Shown piece after piece: positions 4,982 to 9,815 of a DNA stretch of 13,620 nt (positions are counted from its first letter, which is position 1; each line of letters opens with the position of its first letter). This DNA is from a virus. Taxonomy: Duplodnaviria; Heunggongvirae; Uroviricota; Caudoviricetes. A program made the position numbers and the translations under genes. The notes beneath the pieces were generated by a model that saw only the letters and a list, made by a program, of their open reading frames with translations, was not told the DNA's origin and did no database searches. Where the stretch lies: the IMG/VR virus record IMGVR_UViG_2565956608_000003; one strand, written 5' to 3'.

Positions 4982-5573
4982 CCGTGAAACGCGCTGTTAC
5001 AGCGGGGAGGTGCGGGCGGAACAATATGATAATGCCCCGACCCACATTCTGGGCTATGGCTCGGTATTTAACAGTCGTTCAGAACCTCTGTGGGGATTTC
5101 GTGAAATCATCAAGCCGGGGGCTTTTGATGATGTACTGAATGATGATGTACGTGGCTTGTTTAATCATGATCCTAATTTCATTCTCGGACGAAGTTCTGC
5201 CGGCACGTTGTCATTGTCGGTGGATGAACGCGGTTTACGTTATGACATTGTTGCACCGGATACTCCGACTATTTGTGACCTGGTGCTGTCTCCAATGTTG
5301 CGTGGTGACATTAATCAGTCCTCGTTCGCGTTTCGTGTCGCCCGTGACGGAGAGAGCTGGTATGAAGACGACGAGGGGATTGTTATCCGGGAAATCACGC
5401 GCATTTCTCGTCTGTATGACGTCAGCCCGGTGACATATCCGGCCTATCAGGACGCAGACTCTGGTGTCCGCTCAATGAAAGCCTGGCAGGAAGCGCGGGC
5501 GAGTGGTGCGCTGAAGAAAGCTGTTAACGAACGAATGGCGCGTGAGCGTCTTTTGACCCTTCTTAATGCATAA
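4974..5573 (+). CDS. Prohead maturation protease (HK97 family)
   Basis: 199-aa ORF overlapping the portal stop by 8 nt (ATGAATGA); sits between portal and major capsid; GAGGA 4961-4965 upstream. Confidence 0.85.
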   Translation: MNDRETRCYSGEVRAEQYDNAPTHILGYGSVFNSRSEPLWGFREIIKPGAFDDVLNDDVRGLFNHDPNFILGRSSAGTLSLSVDERGLRYDIVAPDTPTICDLVLSPMLRGDINQSSFAFRVARDGESWYEDDEGIVIREITRISRLYDVSPVTYPAYQDADSGVRSMKAWQEARASGALKKAVNERMARERLLTLLNA

Positions 5574-5587
5574 GGATACTACTGACG

Positions 5588-6805
5588 ATGAAACTTCATG
5601 AGATGAAGCAAAAACGAAACACCATTGCAAAGGATATGCGTGCACTGCATGAAAAAATTGGTGATAACGCATGGACTGATGAGCAACGGGCAGAGTGGAA
5701 CAGGGCGAAAGCTGAGCTGGATGCGCTGGATGAGCAAATCGCCCGTGAAGAAGAGTTGCGCCGTCAGGATCAGGCATATGTGGATGAGTCCGGGCCGGAA
5801 GAGCGCCAGAATAATGAGGCGGAGAACGGGAAAAAGGCGGTGGAAGAGAAGCGCGCTGCGGCATTTAACCGTTTTCTGCGTGCCGGATTTGCAGAACTGA
5901 ATGCTGAAGAGCGTAATCTGATGCGTGAACTGCGGGCTCAGAGTGTAACAACGGATTCTCAGGGCGGATATACGGTGCCCACGCAGATGCGTAACAAAAT
6001 CATTGACACCATGAAGGCTTATGGCGGGATTGCCAGTGTGGCGCAACTTCTGACCACATCAACCGGGCAGGATATCACCTGGTCAACGTCTGATGGCACG
6101 ACTGAAGAGGGCGAACTGCTGGCGGAAAATACAGCCGCAACGGAACAGGATGTGACGTTCGGGACCGCTATTCTGGGGGCTAAAAAGCTGTCATCAAAAA
6201 TAATTCGTGTGTCCAATGAGCTGCTCCAGGACAGTGGGGTGGATATTGAATCTTATCTGGCAAACCGTATTGCCCAGCGTATTGGTCGTGGAGAGGCAAA
6301 ATATCTGGTTCAGGGGACCGGAACGGGATCACCGTTACAGCCAAAAGGGCTGGCAGCGTCGGTGACGGGAACCATCCAGACTGCAGCCTCTGCCGCTTTC
6401 ACCTGGAAAGAAATGAATGCCCTGAAACATGCCATTGATCCGGCATATCGTGGTGGGCCGAAATACCGCTGGGCATTCAATGATGCCACATTGCAGACTA
6501 TTGAAGAGATGGAGGATGGACAGAAACGCCCGTTATGGCTGCCGGATATTGCAGGCGGTACGCCGGCTACTGTGCTGGGGATCCCTTATGTTATTGATCA
6601 GGCTATTGACGGGATTGGTACCGGAAAAAAATTCATTTTCCTGGGGGATTTCAACCGCTTTATCATTCGCCGCGTTACTTATATGGAACTGAAACGTCTG
6701 GTTGAGCGTTATGCTGAGTTTGATCAGGTGGCATTTCTGGCTTTCCATCGTTTTGACTGTGTGCTGGAAGATGTGGCAGCCATCAAGGCGCTCACTGGCA
6801 AATAA
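5588..6805 (+). CDS. Major capsid protein (HK97 fold) with N-terminal scaffolding delta domain
   Basis: 405-aa ORF; the N-terminal ~100 aa are charged and coiled-coil-like (ELDALDEQIAREEELRRQDQ...), typical of a delta domain, followed by a capsid-like body; directly follows the protease. Confidence 0.9.
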   Translation: MKLHEMKQKRNTIAKDMRALHEKIGDNAWTDEQRAEWNRAKAELDALDEQIAREEELRRQDQAYVDESGPEERQNNEAENGKKAVEEKRAAAFNRFLRAGFAELNAEERNLMRELRAQSVTTDSQGGYTVPTQMRNKIIDTMKAYGGIASVAQLLTTSTGQDITWSTSDGTTEEGELLAENTAATEQDVTFGTAILGAKKLSSKIIRVSNELLQDSGVDIESYLANRIAQRIGRGEAKYLVQGTGTGSPLQPKGLAASVTGTIQTAASAAFTWKEMNALKHAIDPAYRGGPKYRWAFNDATLQTIEEMEDGQKRPLWLPDIAGGTPATVLGIPYVIDQAIDGIGTGKKFIFLGDFNRFIIRRVTYMELKRLVERYAEFDQVAFLAFHRFDCVLEDVAAIKALTGK

Positions 6806-6826
6806 CCACTCGTTGTTCAGTTACAG

Positions 6827-6848
6827 ACCGCGCCGACGCGGTTTTTTT
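6827..6848 (+). terminator. Rho-independent terminator-like hairpin after the capsid gene
   Basis: aCCGCG-ccga-CGCGGt stem-loop followed by T7 (6842-6848), 22 nt after the capsid stop. Confidence 0.55.
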
Positions 6849-6881
6849 ATGCCCGCACAGTGTTGCGGGCAGGAGTTTCTG

Positions 6882-7199
6882 ATGGCAGCAATAGTGGAAA
6901 AACTCAGGGCGCAGTGCCGTATTGATACAGATGATGCAACTGATGATGAGTTACTGATGCTGTATTTCCGGGCTGCCTGCCGCAAGGCAGAAAATTTTAT
7001 CAACCGTAAGCTTTATGAGGAGACGGTGCCAGAAGGTGATCCTGAAGGGGTGCTTATAGCTGATGATGTTTTGCTGGCGCTCATGTTGCTGGTCGGGCAC
7101 TGGTACGAAAACCGGGAAAATTCCTCAGATGTCAGCAAGGCACCAGTCCCGTTTGGTTTTTCTTCTCTTCTGGAGCCTTATCGTTTTATTCCTTTGTAG
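6882..7199 (+). CDS. Head-tail connector protein (HK97 gp6-like)
   Basis: Track ORF 6702..7199 begins inside the capsid gene and spans the terminator; the realistic start is ATG 6882 with AGGAG 6871-6875 six nt upstream; ~105 aa, first gene after the capsid as in HK97-type modules. Confidence 0.7.
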   Translation: MAAIVEKLRAQCRIDTDDATDDELLMLYFRAACRKAENFINRKLYEETVPEGDPEGVLIADDVLLALMLLVGHWYENRENSSDVSKAPVPFGFSSLLEPYRFIPL

Positions 7200-8333: not shown

Positions 8334-8352
8334 GGTCGTTAATGATTTACCC

Positions 8353-8375
8353 ACCCGCCGCTGGCGGGTTTTTTT
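8353..8375 (+). terminator. Rho-independent terminator-like hairpin upstream of the major tail gene
   Basis: aCCCGCC-gct-GGCGGG followed by T7 (8369-8375), then AGGAG and ATG 8393. Confidence 0.55.
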
Positions 8376-8392
8376 ATTTTCAGGAGACGAGT

Positions 8393-9097
8393 ATGTCCTC
8401 TAATTTTGAGCGTTCGCAACTGACGAAAATTATGATTTCGTCTGCACCGGTAACAGCAGAAACCCTGGATTCTGCCAGCTATCTTGGCCTGAGCTGTACA
8501 ATCAAAGAGGTGCAGTTTACCGCAGGACAAAAGCAGGATATTGATGTCACCACGCTGTGTTCTGTTGAGCAGGAAAATATTAACGGCCTTGGGGCTGCTT
8601 CAGAGATTTCCATGTCAGGCAACTTTTATCTGAATGCTGCCCAGAACGCGTTGCGCAGTGCCTATGACAATGACACCACGTATGGCTTTAAAGTTATTTT
8701 TCCGTCAGGCAACGGATTTACCTTTATGGCAGAGGTGCGTCAGCATACCTGGTCTGCAGGAACCAATGGTGTTGTGGCTGCAACGTTTTCCCTGCGTCTG
8801 AAAGGTAAACCTGTGCTGACGACAGAGCCGCTGAAAGTGAAGGTCGATTTAAAAAGCACGCTGCGGGTTTCTTCCGGAGCGAAACTTGAAATGGCGGTTG
8901 AGGCTGCGGGGGGTGTGCCGCCTTATTCTTATGCCTGGAAAAAAGGTGGTTCTCCTGTTTCCGGACAGACGGCGGCAACGTTCAGTAAGGCATCAGCAGC
9001 ATCCGGTGATGCCGGTGCGTATACCTGCGAGATTTCTGATTCAGCAAGCCCTGTTAACAAGGTGACCTCCACTTCCTGCACTGTAACCGTCAGTTAA
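8393..9097 (+). CDS. Major tail (tube) protein with C-terminal Ig-like domain
   Basis: Track ORF 8342..9097 reads through the hairpin; realistic start ATG 8393 (AGGAG 8382-8386, 6-nt spacer). C-terminal ~90 aa (PPYSYAWKKGGSPVSGQ...GAYTCEISDSA...CTVTVS) looks like an Ig-like module, as on lambda gpV. Confidence 0.8.
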   Translation: MSSNFERSQLTKIMISSAPVTAETLDSASYLGLSCTIKEVQFTAGQKQDIDVTTLCSVEQENINGLGAASEISMSGNFYLNAAQNALRSAYDNDTTYGFKVIFPSGNGFTFMAEVRQHTWSAGTNGVVAATFSLRLKGKPVLTTEPLKVKVDLKSTLRVSSGAKLEMAVEAAGGVPPYSYAWKKGGSPVSGQTAATFSKASAASGDAGAYTCEISDSASPVNKVTSTSCTVTVS

Positions 9098-9793: not shown

Positions 9794-9815
9794 AACCGCT
9801 TCGGCGGTTTTTTTT
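9794..9815 (+). terminator. Rho-independent terminator-like hairpin between GT and the tape measure gene
   Basis: AACCGC-ttcg-GCGGTT stem with a UUCG-type tetraloop, followed by a T-run to 9815. Confidence 0.6.

Follow-up and report, generated by a model that had tools for sequence, protein, structure and literature searches.

The gap between the major capsid gene and the adjacent head-tail connector gene of a lambdoid Escherichia coli prophage holds a two-part element: a short terminator-like hairpin (hairpin 1) with its run of seven T (T7; U7 in the RNA), and a second hairpin (hairpin 2) placed directly in front of the Shine-Dalgarno (SD) sequence of the connector gene. The gap lies in a stretch of 13,620 nucleotides (nt) of viral DNA (IMG/VR record IMGVR_UViG_2565956608_000003, Caudoviricetes) that was analyzed at its full length and is called the window here. 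Judged from covariation among homologs and from a strong asymmetry between G·U and A·C combinations, hairpin 2 is a conserved RNA structure of the sense strand. By its covariance-model score, the element belongs to a family of two-hairpin elements found at the enterobacterial capsid-connector junction, the site in phage SfV included. We tentatively favor a role for this element in lowering expression between the head-shell and the neck genes.

Two hairpins between the capsid and connector genes

The capsid stop codon (TAA) occupies positions 6803-6805 and the connector ATG begins at 6882, which leaves a gap of 76 nt (6806-6881) with the following features:

6827-6842, plus strand: hairpin 1, ACCGCG-CCGA-CGCGGT, a terminator-shaped stem (direct reading, energy, relatives)
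6842-6848, plus strand: T7 run, the U-tract of the RNA (direct reading)
6850-6871, plus strand: hairpin 2, (T)GCCCGCA-CAGTGT-TGCGGGC(A), between the U-tract and the SD (energy, covariation, covariance model)
6871-6875, plus strand: SD of the connector gene, AGGAG, its first base being the next after hairpin 2

Hairpin 1 is made of CCGCG (6828-6832), the loop CCGA (6833-6836), and CGCGG (6837-6841), with A6827 able to pair with T6842; its energy is -8.7 kcal/mol for the core and -10.7 kcal/mol for 6825-6844. The T7 run is followed by AT (6849-6850) and then by hairpin 2, composed of GCCCGCA (6851-6857), the loop CAGTGT (6858-6863), and TGCGGGC (6864-6870), where T6850 is able to pair with A6871 (-16.1 kcal/mol for the core, -17.7 kcal/mol for 6850-6871). 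Direct reading confirmed exactly the two hairpins, the T7 run, and the coordinates given in the initial annotation, as well as its statement that the second stem, which ends at 6870, abuts the AGGAG of the connector gene. The gap folds at -32.2 kcal/mol, against -19.6 +/- 2.9 kcal/mol for 200 dinucleotide shuffles (z = -4.41, none of the 200 as good), and both hairpins also fold in a 131-nt context.

Hairpin 1 has the shape of an intrinsic terminator, with a stem of 5-6 base pairs (bp), up to 8 if A-U and G·U pairs are counted, a loop of 4 nt, and a T7 run that begins at its last pair, on the coding strand and in an intergenic position. Its strength lies at the weak, short end of the E. coli terminator range. 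Hairpin 2, which is stable, sits 3′ of the upstream and more abundant cistron, the position of a barrier to 3′ exonucleases. A loose terminator scan of the window returned 18 sites where 13.6 +/- 4.2 are expected, that is, no overall enrichment. Under a strict definition (a perfectly paired stem of 4 bp or more, 3 or more of them G-C, a loop of 3-8, and at least 6 T directly after), the window contains three sites, at 6828, 8354, and 9796, all on the coding strand and all in intergenic gaps; the mean in shuffled sequences was 0.03, none of 300 shuffles gave three, and the strict scan of the other strand of the window gave no site.

The evidence that hairpin 2 acts as RNA comes from a MAFFT alignment (A3) of 67 unique homologs, which was not fitted to any structure. 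In this alignment, 92% of the hairpin 2 cells are paired, against 46-53% with slid partners, and compensatory combinations are seen in pairs such as these:

Pair 36-58: CG 42, UA 20, UG 4
Pair 39-55: AU 20, GC 19
Pair 40-54: AU 21, GC 14
Pair 31-66: AU 17, GC 13, GU 15

The hairpin 2 pairs total 559 Watson-Crick, 85 G·U, and 7 A·C combinations. A G·U pair on one strand corresponds to an A·C mismatch on the opposite strand; the 85 G·U against 7 A·C therefore point to folding of the sense transcript, not to a DNA palindrome or an antisense RNA. The inner stem and the loop vary freely with complementarity retained, while the lower stem (UGCCYG/CRGGCA) and the 6-8 nt that follow the U-run (RTGCCYG) are conserved in sequence beyond pairing needs. 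For hairpin 1, covariation is uninformative because CCGC/GCGG hardly varies, and its support comes from conservation of shape, including the register-shifted variant in the window and the unrelated hairpins of distant relatives.

Several other identities for these structures were tried and rejected. A bidirectional or opposite-strand terminator does not fit, as the reverse complements lead into A-runs or mixed sequence and there is no strict minus-strand site, and hairpin 2 as a second canonical terminator lacks an adjoining T-run (AGGAGTTTCTG). A repetitive extragenic palindromic (REP) or transposon-like palindrome was dropped, with no Rfam match and no further copy in the window. Indeed, Rfam 15 gave no match at gathering thresholds over the whole window, and a permissive search of 6700-7000 returned chance-level matches alone (at most 15 bits, E at least 0.3). 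An RNase III site consists of about two turns (~20 bp) of largely continuous double-stranded RNA; with 8 bp in the window and 8-14 bp across the family, the stem of hairpin 2 stays below ~20 bp even when weak pairing between the U-tract and the SD extends it.

A family at the enterobacterial capsid-connector junction

Phage records that are ~69% identical to the window in DNA, namely Klebsiella phages, E. coli 733R5, SfV, and a Morganella phage, share this architecture. To avoid ascertainment bias, capsid homologs were sampled with one genome per species, taking the 130 nt after each capsid stop. All sampled Enterobacterales members with 66-79% capsid identity carry the element, which was found in Enterobacteriaceae, Erwiniaceae, Yersiniaceae, Morganellaceae, Pectobacteriaceae, and Hafniaceae-like genera. 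From 5′ to 3′, it consists of hairpin 1, T7, R-T-G-C-C-Y-G opening hairpin 2, and the SD. Hairpin 1 is usually CCGC-(GNRA, UUCG or 5-6 nt loop)-GCGG at the same place, and the window carries a register-shifted variant of it (ACCGCG/CGCGGT in place of CCGC/GCGG).

A covariance model (R1) was built from 67 unique elements and searched against 77 sources. It gave 44 matches of 42-74 bits, all at the capsid-connector junction and all in Enterobacterales or their phages, whereas the next best matches (24 bits or less) are ordinary terminator-plus-SD sites. Window positions 6820-6884 score 45.5 bits (E = 3e-14). Among the unique members, hairpin 1 has a median energy of -8.3 kcal/mol (range -5.6 to -10.3) and the T-run is T7 in 62 of 67, T8 in four, and T6 in one. 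The stem of hairpin 2 has a median of 9 bp (range 8-14) with loops of 3-7 nt and a median energy of -18.3 kcal/mol (range -14.4 to -25.3). The distance from the U-run to hairpin 2 is 0-2 nt in 58 of 60 members, and that from hairpin 2 to the SD is 0-2 nt in 51 of 60. From these spacings and energies, the family can be described as a weak hairpin that carries the U-tract and a strong hairpin that is wedged between the U-tract and the SD.

More distant relatives have a simpler junction: in 27 of 29, the capsid stop is followed at once by one stable hairpin (-11 to -41 kcal/mol). A T-run beside this single hairpin is found mainly in Pasteurellaceae and in none of the Halomonadaceae or Marinobacter relatives. 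Separately, Pasteurellaceae and Paraferrimonas relatives (L160, L161, L183, L157, and L187, at ~1440-1510) show model matches of 18-24 bits just upstream of the capsid start, and these weak matches suggest a terminator-plus-SD site at the protease-capsid junction.

The window itself represents the late operon of a lambdoid E. coli prophage with an HK97-type head. Its Pfam gene order is small and large terminase, portal, S78 prohead protease, HK97-fold capsid, and gp6-like connector, followed by a head completion protein, a gp10-like protein, a tail completion protein, and the tail tube. The initial annotation had called the genes on both sides of the gap correctly, as a capsid gene upstream and a connector gene downstream:

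5588-6805, plus strand: major capsid protein gene, HK97-fold, 405 amino acids (Pfam Phage_capsid PF05065, E = 2e-70)
6882-7199, plus strand: gp6-like head-tail connector (Ad1 adaptor) gene, 105 amino acids (Pfam Phage_connect_1 PF05135, E = 5.7e-14)

Several E. coli temperate phages match the window DNA at 99.6-99.8% identity, and phage records at this identity call the product of 5588-6805 the major capsid protein. The segment 6700-6960 is present in 713 of 5426 complete E. coli genomes (~13%), with a 100% match in strains ATCC 43886 and M217, among others. In the record of one of these temperate phages, Evi, whose genome is lambdoid, the terminase genes are preceded by an annotated Q antiterminator and by the lysis genes S, R, and Rz. 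Polymerase modified by Q, as known for lambda and phage 21, resists intrinsic terminators. By annotation and by analogy with other lambdoid phages, the late operon of the window is thus expected to be read by a Q-modified, terminator-resistant polymerase.

Sister sites and comparable systems

The two other strict sites of the window resemble hairpin 1 and its T-run:

8354-8375, plus strand: terminator-like site CCCGCC-GCT-GGCGGG followed by T7, in the gap between the tail-completion and major tail genes, without a second hairpin (terminator scans)
9796-9815, plus strand: terminator-like site CCGC-TTCG-GCGG followed by T8, in the gap between the tail chaperone and tape-measure genes, without a second hairpin (terminator scans)

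The stem-loop letters at 9796-9815 are those of hairpin 1 in other family members. A scan of viral contigs for CCGC-TTCG-GCGG-T7 returned 89 unique sites, 68 of them without a second hairpin; a second hairpin is no general companion of such terminators. The sites that are followed by RTGCCYG and a hairpin are mostly at the capsid-connector junction. The pre-tape-measure terminator recurs in dozens of viral contigs (L208, L223, L225, L233, L249, and others; tape-measure N-terminus MATLRELIIKISAN), where, just as at 9796-9815 of the window, the SD always stands directly after the U-run and a second hairpin never occurs. An exact-pattern scan for GCGGTTTTTTTRTGCCYGC in viral contigs gave 101 unique matches, 37 of them at the capsid-connector junction, and the remaining matches follow mixed genes (KilA-N, Mu-F-like head morphogenesis, tail terminators, and others). 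A general rule of T7 followed by RTGCC was dropped, as outside the homologous junction the pattern mostly marks generic terminators. Look-alikes with a terminator, T7, an RTGCCCGC hairpin, and an SD do occur in unrelated phages (L011, L086, L055, L079, and L120), after Mu-F-like head genes and tail-terminator genes; these few sites came from a pattern that required the motif, and no frequency or general rule follows from them.

The site at 8354 also bears on a gene start. The listed major-tail open reading frame (8342-9097), which is also a coding sequence in the phage Evi record, holds the strict terminator (8354-8368 plus T7) within its first 17 codons. An in-frame ATG at 8393, with AGGAG upstream at 8382-8386, looks like the likelier start, and public annotations probably start the major tail gene 51 nt too early. 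The HK97 homolog of the major tail gene begins after its annotated terminator.

HK97 (GenBank NC_002167; Juhala et al. 2000, J Mol Biol 299:27) has the same operon layout as the window, and its annotation places putative terminators downstream of gp5, the major head gene, and upstream of both the major tail and the tape-measure genes, the junctions that are equivalent to those of the strict sites in the window. The gp5-gp6 gap of HK97 differs in its anatomy: it is 33 nt long and has one strong hairpin (GGGGGCGGG-GAAA-CCCGCCC) followed by only TTTT, with no second hairpin. This junction gives no covariance-model match, and the window capsid is only distantly related to gp5. Within this gap (L202 1687-1719), gp6 has a single SD-like sequence, a GGAGG ~27 nt away from the ATG, which is positioned at the 5′ arm of the post-capsid hairpin or within that arm; gp6 has either an SD that is linked to its start codon across the hairpin or no normal SD.

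SfV (GenBank U82619) has a true homolog of the whole element, with hairpin 1, T7, GTGCCCGC...GCGGGCAC, and AGGAGG (69 bits). The "putative rho-independent terminator" annotated between its orf5 (capsid) and orf6, at 5547-5584 (L004 1711-1748), takes in hairpin 2 together with the SD and the ATG, and leaves out hairpin 1 with its T7. The label thus sits on a hairpin that lacks an adjacent U-tract, and the two-part design went unrecorded.

In phage T7, the terminator T-phi lies immediately downstream of the capsid gene 10A and terminates incompletely, so that downstream genes are still expressed (PMC6068830). Like the window element, this terminator hairpin follows the major capsid gene directly and precedes the SD of the next structural gene. 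In contrast to the window element, the polymerase on which it acts is T7 RNA polymerase, its one long hairpin has no sequence homology to the window, and it functions without Q-type antitermination; termination at T-phi was measured, whereas that at the window element is predicted. Another comparable case is the lambdoid, P22-like phage L, where a terminator was predicted after the procapsid module in a single antiterminated late operon (bioRxiv 10.1101/2020.10.05.325894). According to the authors, this is no isolated case and the roles of such terminators are "not known"; they suggested either partial termination or the stopping of non-antiterminated transcription (bioRxiv 10.1101/2020.10.05.325894). 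We adopt the latter as the probable main termination role of hairpin 1 and U7. The phage L site differs from the window in that its capsid is of the P22-type family and no second hairpin is described; it too is a prediction.

Intercistronic hairpins that stabilize RNA set differential expression in other operons, for example the malE-malF REP, Rhodobacter puf, and lambda tI, which is both a terminator and an RNA stabilizer. These are stable stem-loops 3′ of the more abundant cistron, a description that fits hairpin 2 (-14 to -25 kcal/mol) and the relatives that have a hairpin only. Unlike the malE-malF REP, the window element has no sequence relation to REP and no Rfam match. A terminator-like hairpin after the capsid gene is already known, as it is annotated in HK97-type operons. 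What we did not find described are the two-part design, the covariation of hairpin 2 as sense-strand RNA, and the way in which hairpin 2 is set like a clamp between the U-tract and the SD. Literature searches found no 3′-end mapping or RNA-seq for this phage group.

How the element may act

We tentatively favor the view that the gap carries a conserved intercistronic RNA element in two parts, whose effect is to reduce expression between the head-shell and the neck genes, and we infer each of its functional steps. Hairpin 1 with U7 would be a canonical but weak intrinsic terminator. In lytic growth, Q-modified RNA polymerase would mostly read through it, and it would mainly stop polymerase that lacks Q, for example in stray or prophage-state transcription; the non-Q transcripts that end there would gain a protected 3′ end. 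Hairpin 2 is the counterpart of the single stable post-capsid hairpin kept by nearly all relatives, and we read it as a family-wide mRNA element because its strength and position match those of the single hairpin in distant relatives. In read-through mRNA, it may block 3′-to-5′ exonucleases, so that the capsid-ending segment outlives the downstream segment. With the U-tract and the purine-rich SD within 0-2 nt of hairpin 2, U·G and U-A pairs may extend its helix, and the extended helix would lower ribosome access to the connector gene. HK97-type virions in general need ~12 copies of the connector against ~415 copies of the capsid protein. The broad idea of the initial annotation, a terminator-like hairpin with a second hairpin that affects RNA stability or connector translation, fits this evidence, hairpin 2 being a conserved and covarying RNA hairpin of the sense strand.

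The predicted effect on ribosome access comes from partition-function folds of 67 family elements. In read-through RNA, the median probability that the SD is unpaired is 0.12, and two changes raise it to 0.42: a U-tract swapped for CA repeats, and an RNA whose 5′ end lies within the U-tract. The predicted accessibility of the ribosome-binding site is 0.15 for the connector gene, whereas the capsid gene at these loci reaches 0.51, and the connector value becomes 0.37 with hairpin 2 disrupted. The suggestion in the initial annotation that the second hairpin modulates connector translation agrees with these folds, in which the SD is less accessible when hairpin 2 and the U-tract are present, with a small effect in the window. 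Translation initiation reportedly controls the relative expression rates of lambda late genes, to go by the title of Sampson et al. (1988, PNAS 85:5439), and the predicted masking of the SD would fit that title. A more elaborate version of the mechanism, which we regard as doubtful, is that U7 plays two parts, as the U-tract of the terminator and, in read-through mRNA, as an anti-SD that hairpin 2 clamps onto the ribosome-binding site of the connector gene. A cut, or the end of transcription, inside the U-tract would then unmask the downstream message, and the element would be a compact terminator-coupled translational attenuator that is conserved in enterobacterial prophages.

A number of observations weigh against the favored mechanism. 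The folds are thermodynamic predictions on related sequences, which are not independent samples, and in the window itself the predicted masking of the SD is small (0.34 vs 0.39-0.41). Moreover, the U-run is invariant and the SD is constrained by 16S rRNA, so that covariation is uninformative about their pairing; a purine-rich SD beside a U-run always scores as paired. The near invariance of U7 argues for selection on termination itself or on something else that depends on the U residues, such as an RNase E site, and a model of pure RNA stability does not explain it. As a comparable terminator precedes the high-copy major tail gene, these sites are not all simple step-down devices. Finally, the activity of Q on this operon rests on database annotation.

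The weakest part of the initial annotation was its proposal that partial termination sets the capsid-to-neck stoichiometry. In the corresponding rival reading, a leaky terminator would act alone: hairpin 1 and U7 would end a fixed fraction of late transcripts and leave more capsid mRNA than downstream mRNA, as at phage T7 T-phi, and hairpin 2 would be secondary, for example by tuning termination through G+C-rich DNA just past the release site. The canonical shape and the nearly invariant T7 run fit, the position after the capsid gene mirrors that of T-phi (PMC6068830), putative terminators are annotated at the junction in the HK97 and SfV records, and the RTGCCYG after the U-run is conserved beyond pairing needs. 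Nevertheless, we consider this unlikely. With a Q antiterminator annotated upstream, late transcription should largely ignore a terminator of -8 to -11 kcal/mol, and with 4-6 bp and about -8 kcal/mol hairpin 1 is a weak one. The major tail gene, whose product is needed in high copy, has an equally good terminator directly in front of it, and the Halomonadaceae and Marinobacter relatives keep the hairpin without any T-run. The small masking of the SD in the window (0.34 vs about 0.4) weakens the proposal as well, and a DNA-duplex effect would not explain why the arms of hairpin 2 covary with a sense-strand G·U bias. As coherent as the favored mechanism, and given a similarly low probability by us as the leaky terminator, is a processing site that punctuates the message. 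RNase E would cut the U7-R-U linker and thereby also free the SD; the capsid message would then carry hairpin 1 as its 3′ cap, and the neck message would begin with hairpin 2, which would block 5′-end-dependent RNase E, so that the two segments decay independently. RNase E prefers U-rich single strands, and 5′-terminal stem-loops of the ompA type stabilize mRNA. The linker is invariant, A/U-rich, and single-stranded, with a stable hairpin within 0-2 nt on each side, and the SD is predicted to open in RNA that starts inside the U-tract (the median of 0.42 vs 0.12 given above). Against such a site, the generic intra-operon terminators of the same phages, such as the pre-tape-measure one, have no second hairpin, the same is true of 68 of the 89 unique CCGC-TTCG-GCGG-T7 sites, and the more distant relatives need one hairpin only.

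Two further readings place the function outside termination and decay. A role at the DNA level, in which the 40-nt island serves as a module-boundary linker for exchange between head and neck genes, or as a palindromic protein-binding site, and the RNA folds are incidental, appears highly improbable to us. There are mosaic joints inside the element: one locus (L019) has the capsid gene of the window (99.8% amino acid identity) and both hairpins, followed by an SfV-type SD and connector (48%), and another (L068) combines an unrelated capsid gene (25%) and a hairpin 1 of the SfV type with the hairpin 2 and the connector of the window (98%), which follow them. In 85 of the 713 matching E. coli genomes, the match covers less than 80% of the query, and the three partial matches listed (H65-H67) break at window positions 6871, 6838, and 6844. 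Recombination at a conserved island is the expected by-product of its conservation, however, and hairpin 2 varies yet stays complementary, with the 85 G·U against 7 A·C that are the signature of a sense-strand RNA helix. One could also imagine, with hardly any probability in our estimate, that hairpin 2 is a translational operator to which a phage protein (for example the capsid, scaffold-domain, or connector protein) binds to give feedback on connector synthesis, as do the coat protein of RNA phages or T4 RegA. The hairpin adjoins the SD, its lower stem is conserved beyond pairing, and the second hairpin turned up only at the capsid-connector junction. Known operators are loop-specific, whereas the loop and upper stem of hairpin 2 vary in sequence and in length (stems of 8-14 bp, loops of 3-7 nt). 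No candidate for such an RNA-binding protein came up, and no test was aimed at one.

From a biological perspective, terminators inside antiterminated late operons have long been noted in phage genome papers, and the element described here is a clean and very common test case for them. If the two-part design does not set the capsid-to-neck ratio, what remains is an ordinary post-capsid terminator with a neighboring stabilizer hairpin. If it does, the element would provide a concrete post-transcriptional mechanism for virion stoichiometry in lambdoid phages with HK97-type heads, and would also be a compact part for tuning expression in synthetic operons.

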